Part shown: positions 1-63,202 of the stretch, piece after piece
Position numbering within the stretch: position 1 is the stretch's first letter
Layout of the letters: each line of letters begins with the position of its first letter
NCBI GenBank assembly: GCA_041739995.1
Contig: JBGSMV010000031.1
Coordinates: 32,001-96,000 of the forward strand
Source: Bdellovibrionota bacterium
GTDB taxonomy: Bacteria > Bdellovibrionota_C > UBA2361 > JBGSMV01
Reading direction: 5' to 3'
DNA: 64,000 nt
The notes under the pieces: generated by a model
What the model was told of the DNA's origin: nothing
Seen by the model: the letters and a program-made list of their open reading frames with translations, nothing else
The model's database searches: none
Translations under genes and position numbers: made by a program

Positions 1-612
1 GCCCAAGGAGTTCAGGGCGTGCAAGGCGAAATCGGAGCCCAAGGCCCGACAGGACCCCAAGGACTACAAGGCGCAACTGGGGCACAAGGTGCCACTGGAC
101 CAGTCGGTCAAACAGGCAACACTGGTGCCCAAGGACCACAGGGAAATTCAGGGCCAGTTGGTCCCACTGGTGCTCGCGGTGAAAGCGCCTTCGATGTGAT
201 TCCGCAAAATCGAACCGTCTACGGAGTAATCGGATCAGACGTGAATGCTTCGTCTGCAAACTCGCAGTGGGGATTCTCAGAAAGCCTTCCTGCTGTGGCA
301 CCCGTGGCGTTCGCAAACGAGGCAGTGGTTGTTCGAAATAATCCTATAGTACAGAACGGATGTAGCGGTAACTGCTTGGCTGAAGAGGAAATAAACAACT
401 CAAATAACTGCACGGGAAGTGTAGAGTCCCCTACGGCTCCTCCTGGATGGTTGTGCGTGTACCCGGTATACGTACAAAATATTGCAGCTGGATCTATCCG
501 CGCCACTGCATTGCCAGCCGGTTCTAGCCGACACGGATTCTTCATCCGCTGGAAAGCTGCAGCGACTGGAACCAGCGGCATTCGTATGGTCTGGGCCTAC
601 ACCGCGCCGTAA
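1..612 (+). CDS. Collagen-like (Gly-X-Y repeat) protein, 5'-truncated by window edge, with Cys-containing C-terminal globular domain
   Basis: Frame open from base 1 ([18 protein letters not shown]...); uninterrupted G-X-Y triplets to ~nt 185; stop TAA 610-612 followed by a terminator. Confidence 0.85.
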
Positions 613-12500: not shown

Positions 12501-15398
12501 AGAACTGGCGTGGGAACCGCGAGCACGGCTTCGAGTGTTACTAGTGGCTTCGAACTCGACGCCCTTGAATTCATCGAGGACTATTCGTTTCTCGGTCTGG
12601 GCCGCCTTGTTCGAGGCCTTGCCCGCATTGATAGTCTCTCGATAGAGCCAACTTTCAGCCCGCAACGAGGAACGGTTGAACCGACTCTCGTAGCTACTAA
12701 GCGGCTGTTTGATCACCTTTCTCTGGTAGGACAGACGCTGTTTGGAAGCACCTCAAACGATAGCAGTCTTCGTTTAGTATATGATGTTTCTCCCGCTGTT
12801 GAGATATCCGGTATTCTCGATGCAGCTACGCAAGATCGCGGAAGTTCTGCTGGGGTTGATCTTTCTTATACGCTTCTCGGCGAACGACGCAGATTCTTGG
12901 ACATTCGCACTTCCGGCAACAACATTATTCGCAGCCTCGATATACTTTATGCGTTACGGCTCAACGAAGATACCCGCATCTTACCTTCCAAGGTTTCGCG
13001 ACTCGAGAAAAGAATCACCACGTTCTATGCGAAGCAGGGATTCTTTGCAGCACGCGCCTCCGTCGAGTGTGCTGAAGTTCCCGGCTTTGCTGACACTTTC
13101 TGTCATCAGATTTTGATTGAGATTGATGAGGGGGAGCCTACCTATATTGATGAAGTTGTTTTCGACGGAGCGGCTCTACCCGAGTTTTTACCGGCGTCCT
13201 CGGTTAAACAATCGGTTCGACGATCCATCGCCTCTGAAGAAACTCGAAAGGCATTTGAGAAACAACTGGTTAACGCATTGAGAGCAGAGGGTTATCTCGC
13301 TGCAAGGGTATCGACATCGTTCGAGCCATCAAAAACTGAGGATGTACAGGATCCGTCGCGAGGTTCTACGAGCGCGGCTTCGCGAGGAGTGACTCTGCGT
13401 GCAGCCCTTACCGTTGGCGACCCCGTTACTTTTGTCTTTACCAACAATACTGTTTTCTCGGCAAAAGAGTTTCTTGAAACTATCGATCTCTTTGGTCGTC
13501 GACAACCCTTTGGAAGTAACACCGTTACGATTCTTCTCGAAAACATCGAACGCCTTTACAATGATGCGGGATATCTTTTTGCCTCAGCATCTGTCGAGCG
13601 AACCAAGGACTCCGCGGGAGAGCGCGTGACCTATCACATCACGCTCGAAGAAGGCCTCAAATTCCAGGTGTCACAAGTCACGTTCCAGGGCCTCGAGACT
13701 TTCTCCACCGAGAGACTGCATCGAGCCCTTCGCAAGCACGAACCCGAAGCAGCGTCTCTCATCCTTGAGCCAACCTTCGCCGTTCCCGATCAGCTTGAGG
13801 TAAACACGCTCACCATCACCCGAGCACTAGAGCTTTCTGGATTTCCTGAGGCAAAAGTAACCGTGGAGGTGACTCCAGATGAAGAGAATAAGACCGTTGA
13901 GATTCTCTACACGGTCGTGGAAGGATCTGAAGTTATCGCAGATACGATTACGATTCAGGGCGCACCGCCGCATCTTTCACTCCCCAAAGTTCCTCATGGA
14001 TCACTCTCAATTCCCGCCATTAACGAAATTGTGGCCGAGCTTTCTCGTACGCTCGTCGACCAAGGCTATTTGGTGTCGAGCGTCAGCACAAACTTTGTGA
14101 CAGAACGTGAGGCGGTTATACAGGTAGCTCCCGGTCCTCAAAGCTTCATCGAAGAGTTACGCATCGACAATGAAGCAATCTGTGCTCCTGAAGTTATTCG
14201 TCAACAGTTGCTCGTTCAGGCAGGATCGAAACTCGATCAAGAGCTCATCCAAGAGAGCAAGCGTAGATTGCTTCGCTTAGGCCTGTTTGCTCGTGTCGAA
14301 ATGATTCTTGAGCCTCTGGACTCTGAAGCAATCGCGCATCGATTGGTCGTCTCAGTGCAGGAACGCTCACTGCGAACGGTTACCATAGGTGGGGGTGCGA
14401 ACTCTGAGCTTGGCTTGCATATCTTTGGAGAAGCTACGGATAGAAAACTGTTCGGCGATGGACGCAGCCTGACTGCCAGAATTGATACTTATTATGACCG
14501 TGTTGCCGCAGAGATTAGTCAGGGAATAGCGAGTCTTACTTACGGCGACCCTGTTCTACTTGGAAGTGACTACAGCTATTACTCAGACCTGCGTTATCAG
14601 CGAGAAGCCCTCGACAATCAGGAGTTTGACCTTGATAGAGTTGCACTCGCCAACTACGCACACCGCTCTCGCTCGTCAGAATCAGATCTCGCTGGTCTCA
14701 GTTGGTCCATTGGTCATACTATTCTGCAAGAGGACCTCACTAACGTGTCTCCGGGAGCTATCATTGGCTCATTCGACACCGGACTTGTTCGCCTTGGCTT
14801 TCTCTCAGCGCTCATAAACTTTGATGGAAGAGACGATCCTCTTAATCCCACTCGAGGATTCTCCGTTCAAGGAGAGAGTATTATAGCTGCGCAGGCTCTC
14901 GGCTCAGAGGCGGAATACCTCGCTTTTCAGAGTAAGGCCTCCTATCTCACTCCATTGGGCTTTCTCTCTCCACGATGGAGTTTTGCCTCAGGCTCGCGCT
15001 TCGGAGTGGCGTGGAAACTTGCCGATACCGACGAGATACCAATTTCGCAAAGATTCTATCTGGGAGGAAGAACGACGGTTCGAGGCTTTAAAGACAATTC
15101 GCTTGGCCCACTTGGCTTTGACGGAGCGGTGCAAGGCGGCGATCTTACCGCCTCTCAGAATCTCGAGCTGCGCCATAGGCTTGCCTCGAATACCGAAGTA
15201 CTTTCGTTTTTTGATTTTGGAGGATTGTTTCTTCAAGATGACCCAATCCTCTTGAAGGACGTGCGAGAAAGTTTTGGCCTTGGGGTTCGCTATCTCTCGC
15301 CAATCGGTCCGATCGGTTTTGATCTTGGGTTTCCTCTCGATCGAAGAAGCGGTGAAAGCACCTACCAAGTACACTTCAACATCGGCTCCAATTTCTAA
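9528..15398 (+). CDS. Fused TamB (AsmA-like/DUF490) plus TamA/BamA-type (POTRAs + Omp85 barrel) protein
   Basis: N-terminal signal anchor; long beta-rich region; DUF490-like end (RRFEITNG...DPSIDLLAET...PRLRLTSD...LSEAEILSL...GVDLSY); then POTRA-like units, RFYLGGRTTVRGF, GLGVRYLSPIGPIGFDLG and C-terminal beta-signal YQVHFNIGSNF. Confidence 0.88.
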   Translation: MRRGFWLPACALLIGLASSLGVIYAQKRIAKELMGILQDELSQACPCNLKFDSFELSLLRLRATGSNVRIERDGTPHLRFRELEAKFSLSDILQRRIILSELNLKDGFSQGVGPDSSTFQFIDQLTAPAPPEKDFPDRLKVQLERIVVSNAEFVEPIRTTQVLGRNVDVVVQRTPEGDFTITPSIGALALDFNHTKVLNLGSVGGEVFLDDNSFFLKRVRLSNGNANLIIDAEVLQQDGNPLSGEADFLLDDAAVGISRLASFLLYGSGPVSGRLKYPELSGSFSNPTEQPTIFRYESDRQLEFAKMGGDFTLSWEEKEPIFTLQHIEASNSLGQFSLSRPFRVSTETLEGEGSFSLDSFEFSSVTLKEMRAEIVVDSSWTKPKLTARIQAPQSFFGEFPLGAFNAILELDGRVLSFKADTEFSFAQKDAAPLHPVAQSSAAQPSITPHSSDKTLETTTTGSLEFSGDDWEQIELKPTEILVRAGPQKRNASSTFPILDASFRIQGPLDPRLVTGSGNFRISSTNTLVDGKVEIKDGTAAFESSPTSKKIALSAAIGLTEDIPSLLELRLTDFNALEFTTPRAAGTESTTPYAAPTSNKQCSSITGSLRYRFLTALPKEGSGELDVQKLSIGCAPVSIALVGPFVAPIDAGGFKLRKVAFAGTNSSLTVDGEIDPGMTLDLGLNGSLDLRAIAPLIRSVDDIRGQVTLDSFVKGPFEDPTLSGHIAIEDGELDSASSDVSLRAVTGQCSITDGGLEFENVSGRLNEGVFELSGRLEPLAIEESVATLTFRDLLLTPTDELSVILSGSLGIAPDSEGTAAISGEITIDSAEFRKSLNLAQLLRQSALSLVKPSNALKSIPSRTALPDIPLDLKLVAPGNIFIDTPWAAGELKANFQIRGTIETPVPTGSVEVLAGWIGLRDRRFEITNGRAELKSSSLDPSIDLLAETTIRTREGDILLVFLEASGVASAPRLRLTSDRGLSEAEILSLFTTRTGVGTASTASSVTSGFELDALEFIEDYSFLGLGRLVRGLARIDSLSIEPTFSPQRGTVEPTLVATKRLFDHLSLVGQTLFGSTSNDSSLRLVYDVSPAVEISGILDAATQDRGSSAGVDLSYTLLGERRRFLDIRTSGNNIIRSLDILYALRLNEDTRILPSKVSRLEKRITTFYAKQGFFAARASVECAEVPGFADTFCHQILIEIDEGEPTYIDEVVFDGAALPEFLPASSVKQSVRRSIASEETRKAFEKQLVNALRAEGYLAARVSTSFEPSKTEDVQDPSRGSTSAASRGVTLRAALTVGDPVTFVFTNNTVFSAKEFLETIDLFGRRQPFGSNTVTILLENIERLYNDAGYLFASASVERTKDSAGERVTYHITLEEGLKFQVSQVTFQGLETFSTERLHRALRKHEPEAASLILEPTFAVPDQLEVNTLTITRALELSGFPEAKVTVEVTPDEENKTVEILYTVVEGSEVIADTITIQGAPPHLSLPKVPHGSLSIPAINEIVAELSRTLVDQGYLVSSVSTNFVTEREAVIQVAPGPQSFIEELRIDNEAICAPEVIRQQLLVQAGSKLDQELIQESKRRLLRLGLFARVEMILEPLDSEAIAHRLVVSVQERSLRTVTIGGGANSELGLHIFGEATDRKLFGDGRSLTARIDTYYDRVAAEISQGIASLTYGDPVLLGSDYSYYSDLRYQREALDNQEFDLDRVALANYAHRSRSSESDLAGLSWSIGHTILQEDLTNVSPGAIIGSFDTGLVRLGFLSALINFDGRDDPLNPTRGFSVQGESIIAAQALGSEAEYLAFQSKASYLTPLGFLSPRWSFASGSRFGVAWKLADTDEIPISQRFYLGGRTTVRGFKDNSLGPLGFDGAVQGGDLTASQNLELRHRLASNTEVLSFFDFGGLFLQDDPILLKDVRESFGLGVRYLSPIGPIGFDLGFPLDRRSGESTYQVHFNIGSNF

Positions 15399-49427: not shown

Positions 49428-50603
49428 CTACCGACAAGCAGCCTTAAGCTGTTCTCCCTTATCCGTCCGCTCCCAAGAAAAGGCCCCACTGGCAGTAGGG
49501 GTTCGTCCAAAATGGCCGTAGTTAGTAGTCTCTCGGTAGATTGGTCTCAACAACGAGAGCGCTTCAATAATCCCATGCGGCCTGAGGTCGAAAATTTCTG
49601 TCACTGCCTTGGCGATCCGTTCGTCAGGAGATTTCCCAGTTCCAAACGTATCGACATAGACCGCGACTGGACGGGCTACGCCAATCGCATACGCAACTTG
49701 AACTTCACACTTTGTTGCTAACCCCGCAGCAACAATATTCTTGGCAATATGTCGAGCCGCATAGGCAGCCGAACGATCTACCTTTGATGGATCTTTGCCT
49801 GAGAAAGCACCACCACCGTGGCGCCCGTATCCACCGTAGGTATCGACAATAATCTTTCTACCCGTGAGTCCCGCATCTCCAACAGGTCCACCAATGACAA
49901 AGCGACCAGTGGGATTGATAAAGAATTTAGTCTCTTTGTCGAGGAAACGATCCGGCACCACCGGTCGAATCACCTTCTCAATAACAAACCGCTCCAGGTC
50001 TTTGAGATCCGTGTCGTCAGAATGTTGCGTTGAAAGAACCACGGTATGAATACGAGCGGGCTTGCCATCACGATATTCGACCGTGACCTGTGACTTGGCA
50101 TCGGGTTTGAGAAACTTCGCCTGGCCACCGCGTCGCAGATCCCCAAGCCTCATTAAAAGCTGGTGCGCGACTGATACGGGAAGCGGCATGCATTCTGGAG
50201 TCTCGTCACAGGCAAATCCGAACATAAGGCCCTGATCGCCCGCGCCCTGCTCCTTGTTCTTCTCCGCACTGGAATCAACCCCCATGCTGATATCGGGAGA
50301 TTGTCTGGTAAGCAATGTGATAAGTTTTACCGATGACGCTTCAAAGCCTATCGATGGATCGTCATACCCGATGTCGCGCAAAACTTGTCGCACCAGTTCA
50401 TCGAAGTTAACCGTGCCTCTGGACGTCACCTCACCAGCAACAACCACATTGTCGCTCTTCACCAACGTTTCACAAGCCACTCGACTAAGTGGGTCTTGCG
50501 CAAGGTAGGCATCAAGGATGGCATCGCTGATTTGATCGGCGACCTTATCGGGATGCCCTTCTGCTACTGATTCTGAGGTAAAAAGGAAGTTTTTTGCTGG
50601 CAC
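49428..50603 (-). CDS. metK: S-adenosylmethionine synthetase
   Basis: [35 protein letters not shown]. Confidence 0.98.
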
Positions 50604-50635
50604 GCAGGTACTCCGCGGAAGAATAAATTTGAACT

Positions 50636-50665
50636 TCTATATCGGTGAGAGTGAGCACCCGTCAA
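50636..50665 (-). promoter_or_regulatory. Putative sigma70 promoter of metK
   Basis: TTGACG-N18-TATAGA on the minus strand. Confidence 0.4.
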
Positions 50666-50796
50666 GGGAAAGGTGCTAGAAGCGCCATAAAGCCCCCTGA
50701 TTGCTTGAAACCCAACCGAGCGGGAGTCCTCAAGCACAGGCAATTTGTGACAAAGAAGACAGCTTTATTCGCTTCGAAACCTCAAGCCAAAGCGCC

Positions 50797-51774
50797 CTAC
50801 TGAGACGGAGCATGGATATCTCTATGCTTCGCCCCGATGACGAACTGAGCCGAAGGCAGGCGCTCTGCAAGTTGCTTAGCCATCCATTCGCAGAGTGCTA
50901 CAGAGCGGTGTCTCCCCCCGGTGCAGCCTACGCCTATTGTTACGTACGACTTGCCACTCTCAACAAACTTTGGCAGCAGAAAACCGAGTAAGTCCATGTA
51001 ACGCCCAGCAAAATCAGTGGCAACACCAGACTCGAACACAAACTCAGCTACAGGAGTATCGAGCCCCGAAAAATCTCGAAGCAAATCAACAAAGTAGGGA
51101 TTAGGAAGAAAGCGCACATCAGCAAGCAGGTCACAATCGATAGGAACTCCATGCTTGAATCCGAAGCTCAGAAACGTGACCCGCATGGGCTTTGTCGGCC
51201 CCTCATGACAGGAAGCTGCGAAATCTCTCACCTCGGATCGGAGCTGATGCACATTGAGCTCGCTTGTATCGATGACCCGATCGGCTACCTCACGCAATGG
51301 AAAGAGCCGGTCTCGCTCTCTGCAAATTGTTTCCTCAATGGTCTTATCGCGATCGGGATCAAAGCCTGGATGAGGCCTGCGCGTCTGTCCGTAACGCCGA
51401 ATTATGGTTTCTACTTTCGCATCCAAGAATAGGACCGCCAAAGATAAACCTTCAAGTGCGCGCGCCTCTCCCCGCATGCTTACCAATAAAGAAAGCAGCT
51501 GCTCTTGCTTAAGCACCGTATCGAGATCCATTGATAGCGCTGCTTTCTGTACCGGCTTCGATGAACGAGTAAGAAACTCAAGAAAATTTTTAAAGAGGGG
51601 GACTGGTAGATGCTCGACGCTGACAAAGCCGAGGTCGGACAGGGTATCCATCGCCGCAGACTTGCCTGCCCCAGACAAGCCCACCACAAGTACTATCGAG
51701 CAAGGTCGCTCGACTGCCACACTGCCTGGGCCAGCTGTCTGTAGGGGCATTGGTGCCGATTTTTCTCCCACCAC
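50797..51774 (-). CDS. rapZ: RNase adapter RapZ / YvcJ family P-loop protein
   Basis: GLSGAGKS, TRRPHP, SFGFKHG, DVRFLPNP, GCTGGRHRSV. Confidence 0.95.
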   Translation of the reverse strand: MVGEKSAPMPLQTAGPGSVAVERPCSIVLVVGLSGAGKSAAMDTLSDLGFVSVEHLPVPLFKNFLEFLTRSSKPVQKAALSMDLDTVLKQEQLLSLLVSMRGEARALEGLSLAVLFLDAKVETIIRRYGQTRRPHPGFDPDRDKTIEETICRERDRLFPLREVADRVIDTSELNVHQLRSEVRDFAASCHEGPTKPMRVTFLSFGFKHGVPIDCDLLADVRFLPNPYFVDLLRDFSGLDTPVAEFVFESGVATDFAGRYMDLLGFLLPKFVESGKSYVTIGVGCTGGRHRSVALCEWMAKQLAERLPSAQFVIGAKHRDIHAPSQ

Positions 51775-51790
51775 GGTTCTCCCACCACGG
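51763..51790. repeat. Exact 14-bp tandem duplication over the rapZ start region
   Basis: TTCTCCCACCACGG x2. Confidence 0.85.
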
Positions 51791-51809
51791 TTCTACAACC
51801 ACTGCTGGG

Positions 51810-52124
51810 TCAATGCTTAGAGGTAAGTTTTTCTTTGTGGCGCCTTAACTGATGAGACATGGTGTCAACAAGGGCATCAATGGCTGAATACAAATCTGCG
51901 CGCTCCTCCTTGCCATTGAACGTAACGCCGTCGGCATTAAAAGTAACCTCTGCAATCTGCCTGTTTTTTTCGACCAGCAGTACCACATGCGCTTCAATAT
52001 CTTGATGGACAAACTTCTGCACGCAATGAGAAACCTTTTCGGTCGCATAGGTCTTTAGCGCTTCTGTAGCCTCGGTATTACGAAAGGTTAGATTTACATG
52101 AACAATGCGATCAGTATTCGACAT
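51810..52124 (-). CDS. hpf: Ribosome hibernation promoting factor (short HPF/RaiA)
   Basis: TFRNTEATEALKTYA, DLYSAIDALVD...QLRRHKEK; downstream of rpoN. Confidence 0.93.
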   Translation of the reverse strand: MSNTDRIVHVNLTFRNTEATEALKTYATEKVSHCVQKFVHQDIEAHVVLLVEKNRQIAEVTFNADGVTFNGKEERADLYSAIDALVDTMSHQLRRHKEKLTSKH

Positions 52125-52493
52125 AGCTTTCCTCTAGTCAGGTTCAAAAATACTAAACTGCTTCCAAGAACAGACTTCCTATTTGCTCGCGACGAGAGCA
52201 CTCGCTCACTCTATCGCATGCAAAAGAAATTTTGAAGAGCAACCGACGTGCGTAGAATCATTTCGGCCGTACCCAACCTCAACAAACGGTCTAAAAAAAC
52301 GTGGTTGTGCGATGAAAAGTGGCGAACCCTCGGAGCCGGCCTTAGGAGTCTGATACACAGCCCTGTTTATGAGGATCCGCCTTCGCTCACATGTGCCTGT
52401 GCTGCCATTTGGTTCGAGGAGGCTTCCCCCTTCGCTCAGGCTACGAAAGATAAGTCGGCGGGACGTCGTCGTCTGTGCCTGCGTCACAGACTC

Positions 52494-53993
52494 CTAGAAT
52501 GGCCGTTTTCGCTGGGAGGAGGACTCAAGACCGAGGTTCTCGCGGTACTTGGCTACCGTACGTCTCGCAATGGTGATTTGCTCACTTCGTAGAATGTCCA
52601 CCAACTGTTGATCGCTCAGTGGACTGTCTATCGACTCCCCGGAGATAAGTTCCCGAATGCGCTCTTTGACGCTTGAGGAGGACACGTCGCCATCGGCGCC
52701 TTTAATCCCCGTAGTAAAGAAAAATTTGAGCTCGAAAACTCCTTGCGGAGTATGGATATACTTGTCGGTCGTCACACGACTCACTGTCGACTCGTGCATG
52801 CCAATATCGTCGGCAACATCCTTAAGCACGAGCGGCTTCAGCCGTGAGATACCAAACTCCAGAAACTCTTTCTGAAATTTCACGATGCTCTCGGCAACTC
52901 TATAAATTGTCTGCTGCCGCTGATGAATACTTCGAATGAGCCATGACGCCGCCTTCAATCTCTCATTTAAATAGGATTTGTTTGGAACATCCGCCGACTC
53001 TTCACTCTTGAGGAGCTTGAGATAATAGGGGCTGACCCGTAACTTTGGAAGTCCGTCATCATTGAGAGAAATTACGTATTCTCCACCAACTTTGTACACA
53101 TACACATCAGGTACGGCGTAGCGAGTAGAGTCATCTGCATAGGATCGACCAGGTCGAGGCTCAAGTGTGCGAATTACACTTACTGCTTGGGTTACCAGCT
53201 CCAAATCAACCGATTCAGCCTTCGCAATCAAGTCGTAGCGACGCTTCTCGAGCTTGTCGATGTGTACACCGATAATGCGTGCGGCAAGTCCGTCACCAAG
53301 TCCAATTTGCTCTAACTGAATATTTAGGCATTCTTTAAGGTCTCGAGCACCTACCCCTGGAGGATCGAGGGATTGTACAAACTCGAGAACCTCTTCGGCC
53401 TTAGCCATCGAGATCTCGCAAGTCTCGGCGATTCCTTCGAGCGGCTCCATTAAGTAACCACGCCGATCGAGGTTCCCTATGAGATGAAGCGCTATCTGCT
53501 CCTCTTCGGGGTTCAAGCCGGCCATTCGAAGTTGTCCTACCAGGTGCTCGGCGAGTGTTTCTGATTTGCTGACCGTAGCCTCAAGGCCAGGTCGCTCATC
53601 AAAATCGAATAGTCCCTTGGGCGTCGCCGCACCTCGGGAATCCGTAAATGAATCAAGGTAATTCTCCCAGTCTACTCCGGGTTCATCTCCTGTTACGACC
53701 GATGGCTCCCCACTGGGCCCTTCAGATACTTCCGCGCTTCCGTTGGCCGATGAATCTTGGGCGTGTGAGAATTCCTCTGAAGACGTGTGTTCTGCGCTCT
53801 CTCCGAGAGATCTCGCGGAAGCATCGCCCTCTTCTCGAACCTCCTCGAGCAATGGATTCTCGAGCAGCTCCTTCTCTATCGCCTCTAAATACTCCATGCG
53901 ACCAAGCTGCAAGAGCTTGATGGCCTGCTGCAACTGTGGAGTCATCAGCAGATTCTGACCGAGCTTTTGTAAGAGTTTCGCTTCGAGTGCCAT
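52494..53993 (-). CDS. rpoN: RNA polymerase sigma-54 factor
   Basis: MTPQLQQAIKLLQL, HESTVSRVT, RpoN box ARRTVAKYRE; start at MALEAKL (ORF track 54074). Confidence 0.97.
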   Translation of the reverse strand: MALEAKLLQKLGQNLLMTPQLQQAIKLLQLGRMEYLEAIEKELLENPLLEEVREEGDASARSLGESAEHTSSEEFSHAQDSSANGSAEVSEGPSGEPSVVTGDEPGVDWENYLDSFTDSRGAATPKGLFDFDERPGLEATVSKSETLAEHLVGQLRMAGLNPEEEQIALHLIGNLDRRGYLMEPLEGIAETCEISMAKAEEVLEFVQSLDPPGVGARDLKECLNIQLEQIGLGDGLAARIIGVHIDKLEKRRYDLIAKAESVDLELVTQAVSVIRTLEPRPGRSYADDSTRYAVPDVYVYKVGGEYVISLNDDGLPKLRVSPYYLKLLKSEESADVPNKSYLNERLKAASWLIRSIHQRQQTIYRVAESIVKFQKEFLEFGISRLKPLVLKDVADDIGMHESTVSRVTTDKYIHTPQGVFELKFFFTTGIKGADGDVSSSSVKERIRELISGESIDSPLSDQQLVDILRSEQITIARRTVAKYRENLGLESSSQRKRPF

Positions 53994-54351
53994 GTCCGCT
54001 GTTACCGCCTCTATGTTGCTTCGCAACCGTGTTTCGACTTCCGTGTTCGTTCCGTGCAATCCACTGCGCCCCATTTCCGTCGAGAACTCTCAAGCCTCTC
54101 ATCGGCAAGGTGTATGGATGCCCTAGAGGTTTGGACGTACTTTTAGGCCCTTCTGGTTGCAAAAATTGTGCGCAGCGCTGAACTACTAGTAATATCGGCT
54201 AGTTAGGCTCAAGGATGCCCACCTTGTTGCCCAACGGAGGAGGCCTCAAGGGTGACCTGCTGGGTAGGTCAGAGACGTAATGACGGGGGGAAGCTTTCCG
54301 CTGAAATCAGGCGAGGCTACTTGGCCAGCACCCCAAAGACGAGTGCTTCCA

Positions 54352-55077
54352 CTAAAGATTGAATGAATCACCGAGATAGTATCGGCGTGCCTTCTCGCTT
54401 GAAGCGATGACGTCAGGAGCTCCCTCCTCAAGTACTTTCCCATCGATCAGAATGTAGGCGCGGTCGCAGATCCCGAGAGTCTCTCGAACATTGTGATCGG
54501 TAATAAGCACACCAATACCTTTGTCCTTCAAACGCTCGATGATGTGTTGGATATCCTGGATCGCGAGGGGGTCAATCCCCGCGAAAGGCTCATCAAGCAG
54601 AATAAATTTCGGGGAACGAGCAAGTGCCCTGGTAATTTCAACACGTCGACGCTCACCGCCAGACAAGGCACTCGCCACGTTTTTACGCAAAGCTGAAAGG
54701 CCAAGCTCAGCGAGCAGACTCTCTAAACGCTCATTTCTAGTCTTCCGATCGAGTTCGGGAATAGTTTCTAAGATAGCCAACACGTTCTCTTCGACCGATA
54801 GCTTGCGAAAGACTGATGGCTCCTGCGGTAAGTACCCGATACCCATTCGAGCGCGCATGTACATTGGCTCTCGGGTGATCACCTGACCGTTTAACACCAC
54901 CGCACCAGTGTCAGCCCCGACCAACCCGACGCACATGTAGAATGTAGTGGTCTTCCCCGCACCATTCGGCCCAAGAAGACCGACCACTTCACCGGCATTC
55001 ACAGAAATAGACACATGGTCCACCACCAGCCTACCGCCGTAGGACTTCGTAACTTCTAACGTAGCAAGGGTATTCAT
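54352..55077 (-). CDS. lptB: LPS export ABC transporter ATP-binding protein
   Basis: [60 protein letters not shown]; upstream of rpoN. Confidence 0.96.
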
Positions 55078-55183
55078 ATCAGGTGCGAAGAAAAAATTTT
55101 CGCGACACATCGGAAAAGATATGCCGCTAGCCGCTTATAAATGTAGCCAAGCCCCCTCCTAATGGGGAGCCCTCCGGTGCAGC

Positions 55184-56056
55184 CTAAGTTGGCATGTTTT
55201 GCCCGTCCCAGCGAGCCCCTCGAAGGATTGCCTCGATTGCCACTGCTACGCCGTCTTCTTCAACCGACGCGCAGACATGCCGCACACGCGACTTCACTGC
55301 TGCTGCAGCATTGTCCGGGGCTACTCCCCAACCAGCTCTTTCAAGGAACGGCAGGTCTGCCTCAGAGTCTCCAAAGGCAATAACCTCTTCTGGGCTGACC
55401 TTATAAAGGTCAAGAAAGTATTCAAAGACGTCTTCTCGGCGCGCTTTCACGCTAGTGATATTGACGAAGCGAATGCCCGGATGAGCGGCACCAGCTCCTA
55501 CTCCAACGTTTACCTCAGGAATTTTCCCAAGAAATTGCCTTGCACTGGACTCTTGCTCTTCATCCCTACAGACAATGACCATCTTCACGATGTCTGGCAG
55601 ATTTGCATTGACCACAAAGGGATTACACTGAGGCAAAATGCCTAAATATTCACTATGTATGGTCGAAAGGTCATTAAGCACTTCGCTATAGTAGGCGCCA
55701 GAAGAATACCACTCAAAGTACAACTTCTCGCTACGGCAAAACTCTGTAACTTGCTGTCCTATTGTCGAACTTAGGGACGAAGCCCGCAACGTTGTCCCAG
55801 ATGCGGGATCAACAACAACAGCACCTGAGCAAAACATCGAAGGTCTTTTCACTTCCAGAGCCGCGATAATTTCGCGCGCCCCAAACCAAGGACGGCCAGT
55901 GGCCAGCGCTATCGCTACTCCCTGCACTTCAAGCGCTTTGATTGATTTCCGAACGAGAGGGGAAACTTTTCCGCTCCGTCCAACGATGGTGCCATCAATA
56001 TCAAAGAAGGCCACTTTAGGACGTCTCATCTGCTGTTCATTTCCTTGCACGCTCAC
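55184..56056 (-). CDS. Cof-type HAD-IIB hydrolase
   Basis: DIDGT, ATGR, AFGDSEADL motifs; start may be 56050 or 56029. Confidence 0.9.
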   Translation of the reverse strand: MSVQGNEQQMRRPKVAFFDIDGTIVGRSGKVSPLVRKSIKALEVQGVAIALATGRPWFGAREIIAALEVKRPSMFCSGAVVVDPASGTTLRASSLSSTIGQQVTEFCRSEKLYFEWYSSGAYYSEVLNDLSTIHSEYLGILPQCNPFVVNANLPDIVKMVIVCRDEEQESSARQFLGKIPEVNVGVGAGAAHPGIRFVNITSVKARREDVFEYFLDLYKVSPEEVIAFGDSEADLPFLERAGWGVAPDNAAAAVKSRVRHVCASVEEDGVAVAIEAILRGARWDGQNMPT

Positions 56057-56274
56057 TCCTCAAGCGTTGACACTCTGAGAAATTATCGAAGCATACTCGT
56101 ATGAATTGCACTGAATGAAAAGTTTATGGTCTCAAGCCCCGAATCAGTTTGTATACCACGGGGGCGATGAGGTAACGCGCGGGAGGACCGATGCCAGAGC
56201 GAATGGGGTAAATACGTGCCGGTGACAGGTTAATGACGCAGTTACTGGGATTTCGGGGAAGTCAGACGAGACGC

Positions 56275-56313
56275 CCCGCGCTGGGTCAGCGAAATGCGCG
56301 GACCCAGCGCGGG
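56275..56313. terminator. Strong GC hairpin just downstream of the flagellin-like gene
   Basis: CCCGCGCTGGGTC/GACCCAGCGCGGG 13-bp stem; no clear U-tract on the minus strand. Confidence 0.55.
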
Positions 56314-56326
56314 AACTTTCAGGTGC

Positions 56327-57199
56327 TTAAGATCCAGACACCAAACAGAAAAGCCCTGTGCGACGCGCGTCCTTAAACGATGCGAGAGCTGCTAGTGCAT
56401 GTTGCTGAGACTTATAGACATTCTCTCCATCAACCCGCGCCTCTAGAGTATTCAAAAATATCGGGTCAATGACGGTCCTCAAAAAATGTCGAGTTCGCCG
56501 CGATACACGAGGAACAAAAGATTCCCCCAGTATCTCAACCTCCTCCCTCGTATACTCGAGCTCGAACTGTCGCACTGTTCGCTGAGTGACACCATAAACC
56601 CCAAATGCAGAGTCTCTCGCAATGTCAGCCAAGGCTCGAATCTTAGCCACCGCGCGTAACATGTGCACCAAGACCGTGACCCTATCACGTCGGTCATATC
56701 CTCCTGCGCAGTCTCCGCCGTTTGGTTCGCCCACAATCTCCAGACGATCCCAAGATCCAGCCAAACACACAGAGAGTTGACTCAAGGCGATATTCACCGC
56801 ATCAAGCGCCTCTCTCGAGAGCCGCTGAGACTCTTCAATGGTGGAGCCAAGAATAGTAGCTGACGCTAGACCCAAAAAGTCGGCGTCGACCACGTCGTCG
56901 AGAAAATCCCGAGTGCGAGATGTCGCATGCAAACGCGGCTCGGCACCAAACCGGTCCATTTCGGACTTCCAAGCGTGGAACTCGTTATTCAAAGCCATCC
57001 GCTGGGTCTGGCTGTACACACCAGAAGCTGAAAGCGTAGCGAGCTCACTCATCCGTGTGAGAATTTGATTGGCATACGATTGCTGTTCGAGCACGAGCGG
57101 GCGCTGACTTCGAGTGTGCCCCACTGAGCACACTTGAGCGTTGCCGCTAGACACAAGGCCAAGAACCGCCATGATTCCAAGTACTATCCACGTCTTCAT
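56327..57199 (-). CDS. Sec-signal protein with two tandem flagellin D1-like modules
   Basis: Signal MKTWIVLGIMAVLGLVSSGNA; ILTRMSELATLSASGVYSQTQRMALNNEF...SEMDRF resembles the flagellin N-terminal helix; internal repeat with 140-aa period; AGGAG RBS. Confidence 0.75.
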   Translation of the reverse strand: MKTWIVLGIMAVLGLVSSGNAQVCSVGHTRSQRPLVLEQQSYANQILTRMSELATLSASGVYSQTQRMALNNEFHAWKSEMDRFGAEPRLHATSRTRDFLDDVVDADFLGLASATILGSTIEESQRLSREALDAVNIALSQLSVCLAGSWDRLEIVGEPNGGDCAGGYDRRDRVTVLVHMLRAVAKIRALADIARDSAFGVYGVTQRTVRQFELEYTREEVEILGESFVPRVSRRTRHFLRTVIDPIFLNTLEARVDGENVYKSQQHALAALASFKDARRTGLFCLVSGS

Positions 57200-57276
57200 T
57201 GTTCCTTCTCCTAGTTTGCAGACACTTCCTTTCGCGCTTTGACATCCCTATGGACGAGCGAGAATGACCAAGCCAG

Positions 57277-57292
57277 AGGCATCCATGTGCCT
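57277..57292 (-). promoter_or_regulatory. Putative CsrA/RsmA binding hairpin in 5' leader
   Basis: AGGCA-CATGGA-TGCCT: ANGGA presented in a hairpin loop. Confidence 0.5.
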
Positions 57293-57627
57293 TTAGCCCG
57301 CTATCTTCGCTCGCGAATTGTCGAGATGAGTACCTCGACCGATTTGGACCCATCGTTTTCGGAGGAAGAGTGAATTTCCAGAGAACTCGCAGAAACAACG
57401 TCTCGGGGTAAAGATGAAGCGAGCTTTAGCGCATAACCGTGGAGCCAAGAGCGATCTTGAGGGGCCGATTTCAAGAGCATGCACGGGATTCGAGGTTTGA
57501 AGACATCATTCCGAAGTGATAGAGGCCACAGAAGAATTGAATCGCTTCTCGAACACACGCCGAGACCGACCCGCAGGATCCACAATAATGGTTCCATCAA
57601 TGCAGACAGGTCAGCTGCAGCCTTCGA

Positions 57628-60339
57628 CTAATGCGCCTGCTTTTCACTCGCTGAGCTAAGACGAATGCGCGTAGGCGGCGTAGTCATCACTTCGCGAGGA
57701 GTTCCTGAAAGCGCCTCAGCGATCAGCGCAGAAAGGCGAGTTAACTGGAACGGTTTTGACACAAATCCTACTACGCCGTCTGTCTCAAGTAGCTGACTCA
57801 GCGTAGCACTAGAAACATATCCGGTAGATATAATTACGCGAACTGCGTTGTTCAATTTGCGCAGTTCTGCGAGACACTCTGAAGCCCCCATGCGAGGCAT
57901 AACCACATCAAGCAGTACCAGATCGATTTTCGAAACATGCTCAGTAAAAACTTCGATTGCTTCCACACCGTCTGAGGCGGTGAACACCACGTATCCCAAA
58001 GATTGCAGCATCTCTGAGGTGGCACTTCGTACCACATCGTGATCATCAACCACCAGAATAGTCCCTTTCCCCCGTGCGGGGAGCTGAATACTTGCCTCCA
58101 CCCTTTGCCCCAGCGACACCGTGGTGATCGGAAGTAGGATTACAAATGAGGCTCCCTGTCCTTCACTACTCTGGAGAAAAATTGAGCCACCATGGTTGCA
58201 CACAATTCCATACACCATCGCGAGGCCGAGACCAGAGCCTTGGCTCTCGTCCTTAGTACTAAAAAATGGTTCAAAAATTCGCTCTCGAATACTGTCGGGG
58301 ACCCCGCAACCAGTGTCAGTCACCTCAAGCTTAAAAAACATACGAGCGTCTCCATTAACCTCCGACGCCTCTATATTGCTCGTTCGAATGGATAGCTTTC
58401 CTCCCTCCGTTCCACCTGAAATAGGACTCATCGCATCTCGCGCATTTATCGCAAGATTAAGAATGATTTGCTGTAGCTGAACAGGATCGCCAAGCACATG
58501 GCACTCGGTTGCGCCGAAATCTGTTTCCAACGCAATGGAAGGCGCAATCGTTCGCCGGATAATTGAGAGTGTTTCGTCAATCGAATGGTGGATATTCACC
58601 GGCGCATTCTGGTGCTTTCCTTTCCGCGCAAAACCTAAGAGCTTCTGGGTGAGCTCCGCCGCGCGCGTTGCCGCCTGTTCGATCACTTCTGCGCTTCGAT
58701 AGACTTCGGGGCGGTCACTCGAATCAAGTTTTATCAAAGTCGTATAGCCCAGAACTCCCGTCATGAGGTTATTAAAATCGTGGGCGATGCCGCCCGCGAG
58801 TTGCCCCAAGGCCTCCATCTTCTGGGCCTGAACAAGCTGGTCATGCAGCATGCGCTGCTGCGTAATGTCGGTTGCCACTCCGAGAACGTGGACACCATTT
58901 TTCCCCGGAATCTCTAGCGGGAGTTTCACGGTGTGAAGAATCCGCTCTCGGCCTGATTTATCAGTAACTACCTCCTCTTGAATCGTGATTTTTCTTCCTG
59001 AGTCGATCACTGCCAGGTCATCCCGTCGGTACCCTTCGACCTGGGCAGGATCGGAATTAAAATCCGAGTCTTTCTTCCCAATTAGATCCTCTACAGTCGT
59101 GCCATATACGTCCGCCACTGCCTGGTTCACTAAAGCAAAATGGCCTTCCGAGTCTTTGACGAAAATAAGGTTTGGATCTGTGTCGATCACCTTGCGTAAA
59201 AACTTTCTGCTGCCCACCAGCTGTCGCTCGGCTTCCTTTCGCTGTGTGATGTCGCGCACAATACATACCAAACTGCCATCACCAAGTGCGGTAAGCGACA
59301 GCTCCTGAGAAAACATTGAGCGATCCTGTCTGAGCCCAAGCGCCTCACACTGCAGGTTTCCCTCTCGCAAAAAGCTTACTCGCACATGACGTTCGAGGTT
59401 TCGAAGCTCTTGGCTAGAATACAACACCCGCCAGTTCTGTCCGATTAATTCCTCGGGCCTTGCATAACCGAACAATCGAGCAAGCGCTGGATTTACAAAA
59501 CTAAAGGTCTCATCTCGCTCAATGATGGCAATTCCCTCAAGTGAAGCGTCGATAGCTTGGGATTTGCGGCGCAGCTCGTTCTCTATTTTTCTACGTTCAT
59601 TTACTTCGCAGGCCATGGCGACCATGTCGGCAACTGAACATGCAAAGTTCTGCTCATCGAGAGTCCAGCGACGCCGTGGGCCTACATGTTCGTGGCACAC
59701 GATTCCAAACAGTGCCCCATTCACGTAAATGGGTGCGTCCAGCATCGAGGTCACCCCGGCCTCTTGCAGATACTTAAAGTCACTGGTGTATGGGTTGCGT
59801 GACACATCATCGGCCACCAAAATTCGGCTATGCCTAATCGCCTCGAAGTAGGTGGGAAACTCTGCGCGCACAATCGTCTGCCCAGAGGAAAAGTGGCAGG
59901 TCGATTTTTCAAACTCACACTGACACTCGATTACAGAGCCGTCAGCATGCAGTTGCCACACGCTCACGCGCTCTACTCCGAGGGTCATTGCGGCGATTTC
60001 GGTGAGTTCTCGAAGCGCGCCCTGCAAATCCTTTCCGAACATGCTGCTGCTGTTCGCGATACGAAGAATTGCTGCACGCTGACGTTCGAGTCGATAATTA
60101 TCTGCTCGAATCCCGCGTGTACGATCATCGAGAAGTCGCCTCAGATGTGTTCGGATAAACAGTGGAATGAATGCGGCGAAGAGGACTGCGAGAACAAATG
60201 TTCCGATCATCCAGGGGTCGGAAAGGGATCCGAGATCGTTGGTCACCGCGGTGCAAAAGAGGCTTCCAAAAGCGAGAAGAGTAACCACTCCCACCAAAAT
60301 GGGGAGAAAGTCCTCTCGTCGCATTCGCAGAAACCGCAT
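57628..60339 (-). CDS. Hybrid sensor histidine kinase (TM-GAF-PAS-PAS-HisKA-HATPase-REC)
   Basis: GAF SMLDAPI...CHEHVG; PAS; LAGGIAHDFNN; NLAINARDAM; GSGLGL; REC LVVDD...LLDVVMP; GAGGAG RBS before ATG 60339. Confidence 0.95.
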   Translation of the reverse strand: MRFLRMRREDFLPILVGVVTLLAFGSLFCTAVTNDLGSLSDPWMIGTFVLAVLFAAFIPLFIRTHLRRLLDDRTRGIRADNYRLERQRAAILRIANSSSMFGKDLQGALRELTEIAAMTLGVERVSVWQLHADGSVIECQCEFEKSTCHFSSGQTIVRAEFPTYFEAIRHSRILVADDVSRNPYTSDFKYLQEAGVTSMLDAPIYVNGALFGIVCHEHVGPRRRWTLDEQNFACSVADMVAMACEVNERRKIENELRRKSQAIDASLEGIAIIERDETFSFVNPALARLFGYARPEELIGQNWRVLYSSQELRNLERHVRVSFLREGNLQCEALGLRQDRSMFSQELSLTALGDGSLVCIVRDITQRKEAERQLVGSRKFLRKVIDTDPNLIFVKDSEGHFALVNQAVADVYGTTVEDLIGKKDSDFNSDPAQVEGYRRDDLAVIDSGRKITIQEEVVTDKSGRERILHTVKLPLEIPGKNGVHVLGVATDITQQRMLHDQLVQAQKMEALGQLAGGIAHDFNNLMTGVLGYTTLIKLDSSDRPEVYRSAEVIEQAATRAAELTQKLLGFARKGKHQNAPVNIHHSIDETLSIIRRTIAPSIALETDFGATECHVLGDPVQLQQIILNLAINARDAMSPISGGTEGGKLSIRTSNIEASEVNGDARMFFKLEVTDTGCGVPDSIRERIFEPFFSTKDESQGSGLGLAMVYGIVCNHGGSIFLQSSEGQGASFVILLPITTVSLGQRVEASIQLPARGKGTILVVDDHDVVRSATSEMLQSLGYVVFTASDGVEAIEVFTEHVSKIDLVLLDVVMPRMGASECLAELRKLNNAVRVIISTGYVSSATLSQLLETDGVVGFVSKPFQLTRLSALIAEALSGTPREVMTTPPTRIRLSSASEKQAH

Positions 60340-60763: not shown

Positions 60764-61156
60764 ATGAAAACTGCGATTCATTCTTCAACATCCGGCTCCA
60801 CTGAACTCTCTGCCACTCCCGAGATGCGACTCGCTGGGCTTGCGCGACTTCTTATGGAAGCGAAAGATCAGGCAGATGGTCGCGATGCTCTCCAGTTCAG
60901 CATTAGCGCAGACAAGCTTTGCGTTGTCTTGGATACCAGACCGCTTGATCATCCCCTCGCTATGCATGGCGTCACGCAGCTTAAGCAGGCTCTGGAAAGT
61001 CCTGCGATGGCGAGAATCGACTCAGATATTACGAAGACTCTAGGCGGTATCGTCGATGCTATTGGTGAAGCTCTTACGAAGTTCCCCGGTGCATCTCCTC
61101 AACCTGAACTGGCTGCACTACAATCTCCAGCGATCGAACGCCGCACGAGCATTTAG
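60764..61156 (+). CDS. Hypothetical protein
   Basis: 130-aa ORF filling the gap after an AT-rich intergenic region. Confidence 0.55.
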   Translation: MKTAIHSSTSGSTELSATPEMRLAGLARLLMEAKDQADGRDALQFSISADKLCVVLDTRPLDHPLAMHGVTQLKQALESPAMARIDSDITKTLGGIVDAIGEALTKFPGASPQPELAALQSPAIERRTSI

Positions 61157-61189: not shown

Positions 61190-62638
61190 TTAATCCCGTC
61201 GCAGAAACTGATTCGTGTACTTGAAGATCGGTGAACTTGGCGTTTGCCCCGCCATAGAACTGTATCGTACCACCTGCGGACGAGTCAGCTTCTCCACTGC
61301 ATCAGCCACATACGCCGCCACCTCAGCGGGGCGTGTACTGTGGGTCCCTTCGCAAATCACCACCAAGAGCTCTCGTCCATGCGCCTGAGCAAGATACATT
61401 TGGTCAGAGAGTTGGGAGGCTTCGTGGGGTCCAGATTTACCCTTGAAAAACGCATCTTCCGAGTTCTTCACTTCGACGAAGAAACGCTTACCGCCCTTCG
61501 AAGCCACAATGTCGATCTCTGGCCTACTAATGGGGAAGTTAAGATCGCGAGTAACCTTTCCAGCGGGTTTAGCGGCCGCGGGATCACTCACGTGGGCAGA
61601 TAGTTCTTCAATGGTATAGCCGTCTTGTTGCAACGCCATTGCGGTGCTCACTTCTCTGAAGTGCCCCATCAAAGCTCCAGACTCTCGATGCTTACCGGAA
61701 CCAAGTGCTTCACGAGCCGTGCGAAGAGCAGCGCCGAACGTGGAAACACAGCCCTTGCATCCCGAGTGGTGTAAGGCATCAAGCCCGGCCAAATAGTTGA
61801 TGCTTCGGGTATCGCTTTTGAGAAATGTAATCAGGTCATTATTGGAGAATTTTGCGCGGAACGATGGATCACCAAGCAATGAAAGCAACGCCTTTACGCC
61901 TCGATTCCGCGTACTCGTCTCAGCGATTGAAGTGCTTTCATGTTCGGCCGCGGTTCTCACCGCATCGATGAGGTCTTGATCAAGGAGTCTTGTTTTTGGA
62001 GGAGTGTGAGGCGCATTCGTCGCGCTCCCCGCCATCCGCTTTTCTACCGGAACTTTGGCGCTGTTTATTCTATCAATACCATTCTTAAGGCCAAGACCAT
62101 CCTCAGAGAAGACTTCCCCGGCCTGCTCCCGCACCGCTATGGACCCAAGATTCATCAGTTCCGCGAGATTCTTTTGCGGCGCCTGCAGGCAATACTGCAT
62201 AGCCTTCTCTGGACTCAAACCACTGTCGCTAAGCGCCAGCAGGGTTACTATTAGCTCTCCGTGGTAGGTCTCATTCGTTAGTTTCTTAACGACGTTGGTT
62301 GCACCTGCATTCTCTAGTTGTCTGCTCAGATTGTCGATCAAAGTCCCCAGGCGCTGCAGAGACTGCTCAGCCTTTCGAATCCCATTTTCATCAACATCTG
62401 AGATAAATCCTGCTTCTCGCGCCTCAGTTATACTTGGATGACCGCAAAGGATGGCGTTCTGTAGTAGTGTTCGCTTGGAGGGGTCGATATTGAGAAGGTC
62501 CAGTATTCCGTCTTTACCTCCCGCAGCCCGAAGCACATCAAGGGAAACCCCTTCTGGCTGACGAACCGAAAGTTCAGCAGACGGAGGAACTCCAATATCC
62601 TTGGCCGACCGAAGATCGACTACAGCGGTATTCGCCAT
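61190..62638 (-). CDS. Hypothetical protein with C-terminal PD-(D/E)xK nuclease-like domain
   Basis: GHFREVSTA...EIDIVASKGGKRFFVEVKNS...SQL; start 62638 or 62692. Confidence 0.7.
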   Translation of the reverse strand: MANTAVVDLRSAKDIGVPPSAELSVRQPEGVSLDVLRAAGGKDGILDLLNIDPSKRTLLQNAILCGHPSITEAREAGFISDVDENGIRKAEQSLQRLGTLIDNLSRQLENAGATNVVKKLTNETYHGELIVTLLALSDSGLSPEKAMQYCLQAPQKNLAELMNLGSIAVREQAGEVFSEDGLGLKNGIDRINSAKVPVEKRMAGSATNAPHTPPKTRLLDQDLIDAVRTAAEHESTSIAETSTRNRGVKALLSLLGDPSFRAKFSNNDLITFLKSDTRSINYLAGLDALHHSGCKGCVSTFGAALRTAREALGSGKHRESGALMGHFREVSTAMALQQDGYTIEELSAHVSDPAAAKPAGKVTRDLNFPISRPEIDIVASKGGKRFFVEVKNSEDAFFKGKSGPHEASQLSDQMYLAQAHGRELLVVICEGTHSTRPAEVAAYVADAVEKLTRPQVVRYSSMAGQTPSSPIFKYTNQFLRRD

Positions 62639-63202
62639 ACAACCTACCCAGTTTGTCACCACCAACTGCGAGCACGCTTTCGACGCAACCACGTCTTTAC
62701 TGCGTTCTCACCACCGACAAGACGCTCGTTTTAAAGCGAAGCTCCGCGAATCGTCGAACTACTGACTAAAGTTATGGGTAAACGATTCGCGTGAGGGGCT
62801 CTACTCGGCTGAAGGGGAGGCGCCTCATCGACGCGCTGCTCTGGCGAGTGAGCGATGAAACGGTGCCGTCTCAATAGGTTATCTAGGAGAATTCACGGAT
62901 GGGGGGGGATGCGAACGTCCGAATGGGTCTTCGGAATTGGGCTGAGCGGTCCGACTTCAGTCCCCCATTACTCTTGGTTGAGCGGAAATCGATCGGGAAG
63001 GCAATCACACTGAAGCCACACACAGACTCACAAGATCGTGCAAGGACGGGCGGTGTCCTCCGGCTAAATTGTCAACGAGTATCCGTGATCCGGTGTAGGC
63101 GGTTGAATTTATGAATACCAGGGTCGCGCCCGCTCTTAGATACTCGGGCAAGAAGAATAGTAGCGGCGCTGAAGAGGCTGCTTTTTTTGAAAGGGAGGTC
63201 TC

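Follow-up and report, generated by a model that had tools for sequence, protein, structure and literature searches.

Few bacterial protein surfaces are as well conserved as the D1 domain of flagellin, which to our knowledge is known only from axial proteins exported by the flagellar type-III apparatus and from a few cytoplasmic or flagellum-secreted relatives (FlaC, HP1076). What is to be made, then, of a gene whose product resembles flagellin D1 and starts with a predicted leader for the general secretory (Sec) pathway? The question is raised by a 64,000-nucleotide stretch of contig JBGSMV010000031.1 from a Bdellovibrionota bacterium (assembly GCA_041739995.1), which is called the window below. 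Read as an open reading frame (ORF), positions 56327-57199 of the minus strand hold a complete gene of 290 codons plus stop (stop codon at 56327-56329), which has conserved homologues; the plus-strand reading of the same positions contains many stops. An initial annotation, made from the letters alone and naming no strand, had described the 290-residue product, here P0001, as a Sec-exported tandem of two 'D1-only' flagellin modules, each bracketed by cysteines. Here, we show that P0001 belongs to a conserved family of flagellin-D1-derived modules without D0, which exist in single and tandem forms. As to its role, our best guess from the sequence is that P0001 would be a soluble, non-polymerising periplasmic mimic of D1.

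A Family of One-Module and Two-Module Proteins

P0001 contains exactly four cysteines (Cys), at positions 24, 145, 164, and 285, with a spacing of 121 residues in each pair, so that a simple count of the sequence reproduces what the annotation had stated. They mark out two modules. Module 1 comprises residues 24-150 (C24...C145...W150; window 56750-57130, on the minus strand like all parts of the gene) and module 2 residues 164-290 (C164...C285; 56330-56710), and between them lies a linker of residues 151-163 (56711-56749), which is recognized from the alignment and the structural model and has the family consensus ...PNDGxC. When the protein is cut after a conserved SW motif, the two halves align over 127 residues without a gap and with the cysteines in register, at a local BLOSUM62 score of 121 compared to 27.3 +/- 4.7 (maximum 47) in 300 shuffles (z = 20). 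The same half-to-half test gives z = 19-48 in the five closest homologues. Because the score lies far above the shuffles and the cysteines fall in register, the tandem duplication, the cysteine spacing, and the shared motifs are real. The annotated pair of aligned modules of about 125 residues is thus confirmed, and the motifs listed for it can be read in the half-to-half alignment.

A word-indexed search yielded five homologues of about 287 residues with 40-46% identity to P0001. HMMER, run exhaustively with the single sequence of P0001 against 1.84 billion representative proteins, returned 51 matches at E <= 1e-3, 30 at E <= 1e-10, and 18 at E <= 1e-30, which we read as 24 two-module proteins (269-308 residues; P0001-P0024), 19 aligned one-module proteins (131-173 residues), and a few fragments. 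At the bottom of the list stand ordinary flagellins, namely P0051 (E 9.9e-5, query residues 42-144 on flagellin residues 84-186) and P0052 (E 1.8e-4). Longer or fused forms were not found at E <= 0.001 among 8000 candidates, which is weak evidence. The one-module proteins carry a leader, a cysteine about two to three residues past the predicted cleavage site, and a second cysteine in the last few residues, mostly in the penultimate position. The module was duplicated, as the annotation had it, but the tandem is not the defining state of the family, because one-module members exist.

The conserved positions of the 24 two-module proteins are few. R30, R33, L109, G166, L249, and C285 are invariant, and Y28, W150, C164, G167, and D172 nearly so. 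In the one-module proteins only three columns are invariant, two of which are the cysteines.

Descent From the Upper Part of Flagellin D1

The resemblance to flagellin, which the annotation had read from the helices, was borne out by matches in Pfam, NCBIfam, the sequences of the PDB, and the organism's own genome, as well as by profile-profile comparison with hhalign. In Pfam, the match of P0001 to Flagellin_N lies below the cut-off (E 0.003, 18.1 bits, cut-off 26.6) and places residues 43-83 on profile positions 81-121 of 139. Flagellin_C (PF00700) does not match P0001 even at E <= 10, so that of the two profiles the annotation had proposed for checking, only the first responded. Flagellin_N is also the sole Pfam family matched across the family, by eight of the 24 two-module and four of the 19 one-module proteins at E <= 0.01. 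Eleven NCBIfam models for flagellin or FlgL match P0001 (best E 4.5e-5), and the FlgL model TIGR02550 does so weakly (E 0.14). With the family profile as query, the ten best PDB sequences are all flagellin or FlgL chains (best E 2.5e-4). The organism's own genome has 18 flagellin loci that match P0001, in every case inside query residues 36-140, the best at E 1.4e-7 with 47% identity over residues 43-89. The family profile further matches the flagellins of related genomes with per-genome E values of about 1e-9 to 4e-13 among the matches listed, some of which cover query positions 41-143.

When the 24-protein family was compared with nine local flagellins profile against profile, hhalign gave a probability of 98.8% (E 1.2e-16) with 38% identity over 104 columns, placing P0001 residues 40-143 (window 56771-57082) on residues 82-211 of the 286-residue flagellins. 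By the usual domain names, it runs from the last part of ND1a through ND1b to about the middle of CD1. Compared separately with flagellins, module 1 reached 98.9% (E 1.5e-17), the one-module proteins 98.3% (E 2e-14), and module 2 96.3% (E 1.9e-9); module 1 is the copy nearest to flagellin and module 2 is more diverged. The FNG...QVG beta-hairpin segment, which is invariant in flagellins, is deleted or replaced in the family. Conversely, most module-1 and one-module sequences still have R91, A96, Q108/R109, A111, and E115 (local flagellin numbering). R91 is present in 20 of 24 and 17 of 19 of these, A111 in 19 of 24 and all 19, and E115 in 19 of 24 and 18 of 19, respectively. In module 2, the equivalents of flagellin R91 and E94 are kept in just two and one of the 24 proteins.

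The predicted structure agrees with this relation. AlphaFold2, provided with the 24-row alignment, modeled P0001 with a predicted local distance difference test score (pLDDT) of 93.5 and a predicted template modeling score (pTM) of 0.85. Each module consists of two long helices, a short helix, an extended stretch, and a third long helix (residues 30-58, 64-86, 94-103, and 121-148 in module 1), and the pattern recurs over residues 170-288 in module 2 (170-199, 204-226, 234-243, and 261-288). VIA-align, which is independent of Foldseek, was used to scan 48,161 chains with this model, and ranks 1-12 were all taken by flagellins. The best was FliC of Pseudomonas aeruginosa (4nx9_A; Z 14.8, root-mean-square deviation 2.0 Å over 112 residues, 26% identity), with model residues 29-150 superposed on chain residues 70-318. 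It is followed by flagellins of Bacillus, Burkholderia, Achromobacter, Helicobacter, Caulobacter, and others, and the first bundle not related to flagellin appears at Z 10.2. The model of the one-module protein P0028 (pLDDT 90.6) behaved in the same way, with flagellins at ranks 1-11 and a best match at Z 13.2 (1.7 Å, 108 residues). The Foldseek lists are likewise led by flagellins, and the top five for P0028 are all Caulobacter flagellins.

On flagellin, the profile and structure matches start at about residue 70-82 and stop at about residue 211 of 286, hence the lower part of D1 is absent along with D0. The description as 'D1-only' therefore holds insofar as the unit is helical, derived from D1, and without D0, but it goes too far for the remainder, as the unit stops short of lower D1 and is without the beta-hairpin segment. 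We consider it very probable that the modules of P0001 descend from upper flagellin D1. The family is clearly an evolutionary derivative of flagellin, but it stands outside the flagellin family in the sense of Pfam and of function, from which it departs in the N-terminal region, the C-terminal region, and the predicted mode of export.

The history of the modules was traced with FastTree from 48 modules, 19 one-module proteins, and six flagellin D1 segments, on which the tree was rooted; the fragments P0025, P0026, P0029, P0030, P0033, P0039, P0042, and P0045 were left out. All family modules form a single clade separate from the flagellins. Within it, the module-2 copies (24/24, support 0.98) and the one-module proteins (19/19, support 0.95) each form a clade, and the module-1 copies form a basal grade. 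To judge from these sequences, the pattern fits one ancient tandem duplication. The order of the module events should not be pressed, because the sequences are so short.

Export and Disulfide Closure

Residues 1-21 of P0001 (MKTWIVLGIMAVLGLVSSGNA, followed by Q; window 57137-57199) form a predicted Sec leader for signal peptidase I, recognized heuristically by its hydrophobic core. The junction reads ...SSGNA/QVC, and similar A-x-A/Q-x-C junctions recur across the family alignments. As a crude heuristic in place of a signal-peptide predictor, leaders were measured by the best 10-residue Kyte-Doolittle mean within the N-terminal 30 residues or so. This mean is 2.79 in P0001. Values of 2.18 or more are reached by 22 of 24 two-module and 17 of 19 one-module relatives, and none of the 11 local flagellins exceeds 1.33. 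The four relatives that fall below the family value lack a full N-terminal leader, and two of them begin 6-12 residues before the first family cysteine. A lipoprotein was also considered for P0001 and ruled out, as inspection by eye found no lipobox before the cysteine.

All four cysteine columns are occupied in 19 of the 24 two-module proteins and both columns in all 19 one-module proteins. Together with the leader counts, these figures bear out the expectation that homologues would share the signal and the cysteine pattern. Among local flagellins, ten of eleven have no cysteine and one has a single one. C24 and C145 are missing together in four of the 24 two-module proteins (P0015, P0016, P0021, and P0023), a joint loss that argues for pairing within the modules, as the annotation had proposed. 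In the AlphaFold2 model of P0001, residues of a bridge type occur only at positions 28 and 150, which fits module ends that lie together, although this is weak evidence. The genome that carries the window (G000) has, at C52:32874-34124 on the plus strand, VKOR and DsbA-like thioredoxin domains in a single frame of 439 residues, which looks like a disulfide-forming system of the VKOR-DsbA fusion type. Sec export and one disulfide per module, joining the module ends, are strongly suggested by leader and cysteine conservation, and P0001 itself is likely to be exported and disulfide-closed.

Distribution and Genomic Context

In the Bdellovibrio-related phylum, the family was present in 11 of 124 genomes with one copy each, seven of the two-module and four of the one-module type. 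Presence was called at E <= 1e-16, which excludes flagellins (best flagellin match 3.9e-13), with at most 19 candidates scored per genome. The one-module member of genome G055 (C40:3039-3473, minus strand) contains an in-frame TAG and may be a pseudogene or a sequencing error. P0006 originates from an uncultured Bdellovibrionales bacterium, and two of ten one-module proteins looked up are assigned to an 'Oligoflexia bacterium' and a 'Bdellovibrionales bacterium', both as 'hypothetical protein' at NCBI. The genome of P0006 belongs to the same phylum as that of the window, since searches of the phylum started from either genome gave identical hits at identical places. A locus search of genome contigs recovered no relative for P0001 and only its own contig for P0006. 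Four DNA sequencing runs of one study, labelled hot springs or biofilm metagenome, contain 36-57% of the sampled words and may include the source sample, while no RNA run was listed as containing them.

The flagellins of the genome that carries the window are a very large multigene family. In its 3.8 Mb, Flagellin_N finds 24 matches, of which 23 exceed the cut-off, in open frames of about 250 to 667 residues. These matches include C81:34828-36219 and C42:109041-110364, as well as others on C27, C38, C49, and C50. Relatives in the same order have 3-28 matches to the family profile per genome, mostly flagellins.

Thirty-five ORFs of at least 110 residues were called in the window, and a Pfam scan of the 34 others than the P0001 gene detected no flagellar family, P0001 itself having only its weak Flagellin_N match. 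The statement that no flagellar genes are nearby thus holds for the window; the nearest flagellin gene on the contig is located outside it, about 30 kb from the P0001 gene. Downstream of the gene lie a Cof-type HAD hydrolase and then lptB-rpoN-hpf-rapZ-metK, and upstream lies a GAF-PAS hybrid histidine kinase. At the locus of a genome of the same genus, the neighbors are a trypsin-like protease and a periplasmic binding protein. The other five loci examined have rpoC, a CBM protein, a Crp-type regulator, a MarR-type regulator, a sulfatase-family protein, or nothing recognizable. A partnership with the adjoining hybrid kinase or HAD hydrolase was considered and ruled out, as the neighbors differ in every locus examined.

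A Shine-Dalgarno-like site, AGGAGAAGG, lies 4 nucleotides upstream of the ATG (57204-57212, minus strand, by direct reading), and an intergenic gap of 428 nucleotides lies on this upstream side, before the site. A scan of 55000-58500 against Rfam gave no match at E <= 0.1, and a scan for sigma-70 promoters and terminators gave chance level only. With consensus sequences taken from general knowledge, strict sigma-28 and sigma-54 patterns were found nowhere upstream of the P0001 gene and almost nowhere before the flagellin genes of the same genome. A looser site, TAAAG-N17-CCGAGAC, is present at 57400-57428 (minus strand), 229 nucleotides upstream of the start codon. It agrees at 10 of 12 positions with the sigma-28 consensus assumed here, TAAAG-N14-17-CCGATAA, a score equaled by 2.7% of random 250-nucleotide windows of the genome. 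Flagellin upstream regions reached a sigma-28 score of at least 9 in 43% versus 21%, and a score of at least 10 in 1 of 21; since they are barely enriched, this consensus is not validated in the organism.

Some further features of the window stand apart from P0001. The lptB-rpoN (sigma-54)-hpf-rapZ-metK genes occupy 49428-55110 on the minus strand, directly downstream of the HAD hydrolase, so that the P0001 gene lies at the upstream edge of a same-strand housekeeping run; this arrangement is not kept in the genome of the same genus. Upstream of the hybrid kinase, two ORFs of 500 residues (61190-62692, minus strand) and 130 residues (60764-61156, plus strand) have no Pfam match at E <= 0.001. 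At 9528-15395 (plus strand), an ORF of 1956 residues contains TamB (residues 760-1115), POTRA, and Omp85 (residues 1664-1956) domains. From these matches, an inner-membrane-anchored TamB and an Omp85/TamA-type barrel appear to be fused, which would be an unusual architecture for a translocation-and-assembly module. Finally, 19-609 (plus strand) matches the collagen triple-helix repeat (E 8.2e-10) and is probably the tail of a longer gene.

Possible Functions

The explanation that we favor, though as a whole it falls a little short of an even chance, is that of an exported, disulfide-closed D1 protein that would present the ND1 surface, perhaps to the cell's own flagellin. The Sec-type leader would take P0001 across the inner membrane. 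In the oxidizing periplasm, a disulfide would then staple the two ends of each module together (C24-C145 and C164-C285), at the point where in flagellin the remaining D1 and then D0 would continue, and the VKOR-DsbA-type oxidase encoded in the genome could form these bonds. Flagellins need the D0 helices for export through the flagellar type-III apparatus and for polymerization; without D0, P0001 should therefore neither use the flagellar export gate nor enter the core of the filament. It would instead present the conserved ND1 surface outside the cytoplasm and bind whatever that surface binds.

The candidate we favor for such binding is the cell's own flagellar filament or its flagellin subunits. 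A flagellum-directed role is favored because module 1 and the one-module proteins keep polar residues that are invariant in flagellins, because the identity of module 1 to local flagellins amounts to 38%, and because flagella of the Bdellovibrio type, which the carriers may have, are sheathed; taken by itself it is nonetheless rather unlikely. Relatives in this phylum are noted for flagella with a membrane sheath, whose filament faces a periplasm-like space, so that periplasmic proteins could reach it. In Bdellovibrio, an outer-membrane sheath surrounds the filament (PMC13106801). In a more specific version, which we think decidedly unlikely, members of the family, as disulfide-closed 'half-subunits' of D1 in single or tandem form, would dock on D1 of the cell's own filament inside the sheath, or on subunits leaking into the periplasm, and would serve as a spacer, lubricant, cap, or quality-control binder. 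For a predicted complex of P0001 residues 22-290 with a local 286-residue flagellin, the scores were 0.29 and 0.17, where the mark is 0.32; run without controls, this prediction speaks neither for nor against binding.

Several observations weigh against the favored explanation. Foldseek, the structural search proposed in the annotation, found no match in the PDB at E <= 0.001 (best E 0.22 for P0001 and 0.13 for P0028), although flagellins led both lists. Moreover, by the tool's own note, helical bundles can reach Z 13-15 in VIA-align by arrangement alone, for which reason the fold match confirms the sequence homology and is not an independent proof. As to the disulfides, P0002 lacks C164 yet retains C285, and a DsbB homologue was not found in the genome, which is 91% complete. 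The retained polar residues may merely hold the bundle together. The occurrence of the family is patchy, with 11 of 124 genomes and none of the 36 in the largest family-level group searched, hence the family is not a general part of these flagella. In none of the seven loci examined was there a conserved or a flagellar neighbor.

Part of this evidence is what would be expected if the D1 bundle had been repurposed as a stable, disulfide-closed frame for a job unrelated to flagella, such as the binding of a ligand or of some component of the envelope or of prey, and this alternative is a serious one, although we would not call it probable. Such a protein would act through a patch at the stapled end that is specific to the family and absent in flagellins, namely C-x-x-G-Y-x-R-x-x-R and the W after the second cysteine. 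Indeed, the residues under strict conservation in the two-module proteins (R30, R33, Y28, W150, and others) are specific to the family, module 2 has lost most polar residues of the flagellin type, the neighbors are variable and never flagellar, and patchiness is expected of an accessory gene. On the other hand, residues of a surface type that are invariant in flagellins remain frequent in module 1 and in the one-module proteins, and module 1 is 38% identical to local flagellins over 104 columns, which exceeds what a bare scaffold needs. Neither is there a ligand, a partner, or a fused domain to indicate another function, although the failure to find longer fused forms counts for little.

A decoy role, one of the uses suggested in the annotation for a flagellin mimic, is improbable. 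Here, the exported D1 mimic would absorb flagellotropic phage fibers, proteases that cleave flagellin, or TLR5-type receptors of eukaryotes. Such a role would agree with the retention of the conserved ND1 stretch (Flagellin_N positions 81-121), which carries the main TLR5 contact, and with a soluble protein that has no D0 and so cannot be built into the filament. However, the named relatives all come from environmental metagenome assemblies with no indication of host association, the leader alone reaches the periplasm only, and nothing ties the gene to another secretion signal or system. Phages are also unlikely to target the ND1 surface, because it is buried in the assembled filament.

That P0001 is a flagellin after all, either a type-III-exported non-filament flagellin like FlaC or a decayed remnant with an incidental leader and incidental cysteines, is very improbable, for despite clear homology (hhalign 98.8%) and a genome rich in paralogues (23 of 24 Flagellin_N matches over the cut-off), it has no D0, a Flagellin_N match under the cut-off and no Flagellin_C match at E <= 10, a hydrophobic leader and cysteine pattern conserved across 43 aligned relatives, an intact frame with a confidently predicted fold, and modules that form a clade separate from flagellins.

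Comparison With Known Flagellin Relatives

The family shows that D1 can fold and persist alone outside the filament, and it offers a compact, naturally stabilized D1 fragment for structural work. Pfam matches the family with Flagellin_N only, and the NCBI label is 'hypothetical protein'. If the exported protein binds the filament or flagellin, it would represent an unrecognized layer of flagellar biology in Bdellovibrio-like bacteria, and if it does not, the family would illustrate cleanly how, in nature, the subunit of a polymer has become a soluble scaffold. A flagellar role on the periplasmic side, if true, would make P0001 the first Sec-delivered, flagellin-derived protein acting on the flagellum, and the family a new class of accessory proteins that recycle the interaction surface of the filament. 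No description of a Sec-exported flagellin-D1 protein without D0 was found in the literature searched, with most subscription journals outside its scope.

Among the proteins with which the family can be compared, HP1076 of Helicobacter pylori (FliS_cochap, PF16522) is described as having a 'flagellin-like structure', as soluble, and as occupying the flagellin site on FliS (PMC7248283). HP1076 and, as predicted, the P0001 family are both small, soluble, non-polymerizing helical bundles, but HP1076 works with the cytoplasmic chaperone FliS, is membrane-associated, and is without cysteine brackets. The exact sequence of P0001 is absent from the ESM Atlas, and a language-model search of it with P0001, with a best feature score of 0.84 to be taken as a lead only, placed FliS_cochap at rank 29 (score 0.79), a faint lead. 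The FliS_cochap family in Pfam does not match P0001 even at E <= 10, and HP1076 does not appear within the top 50 structural matches for either the P0001 or the P0028 model.

FlgL (HAP3) has the same D1-type bundle, and its chains match the models at Z 8.0-9.3, more weakly than flagellins do. It differs from the family in being a type-III-exported axial protein with D0.

FlaC, which retains the flagellin termini, is a flagellin relative of Campylobacter jejuni and other Campylobacterales that, as is predicted for the P0001 family, is found outside the motility filament and is soluble outside the cytoplasm. Two reports describe it as flagellin-like, not part of the filament, and secreted through the flagellum (PMC4863622, PMC5466977). 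By these descriptions rather than by a comparison of sequences, the P0001 family is set apart from FlaC by its predicted Sec-type leader, the lack of D0, and the cysteine brackets.

The closest relatives are the filament flagellins themselves (FliC/FlaA/Hag, PF00669 and PF00700), especially the short D0-D1 type of about 286 residues, with which P0001 has the ancestry and fold of upper D1 in common. Compared to these, the P0001 family is without D0 and lower D1, has the hairpin motif deleted, and has the module duplicated in tandem. A predicted Sec-type leader takes the place of the type-III export signal, and each module carries a pair of cysteines.

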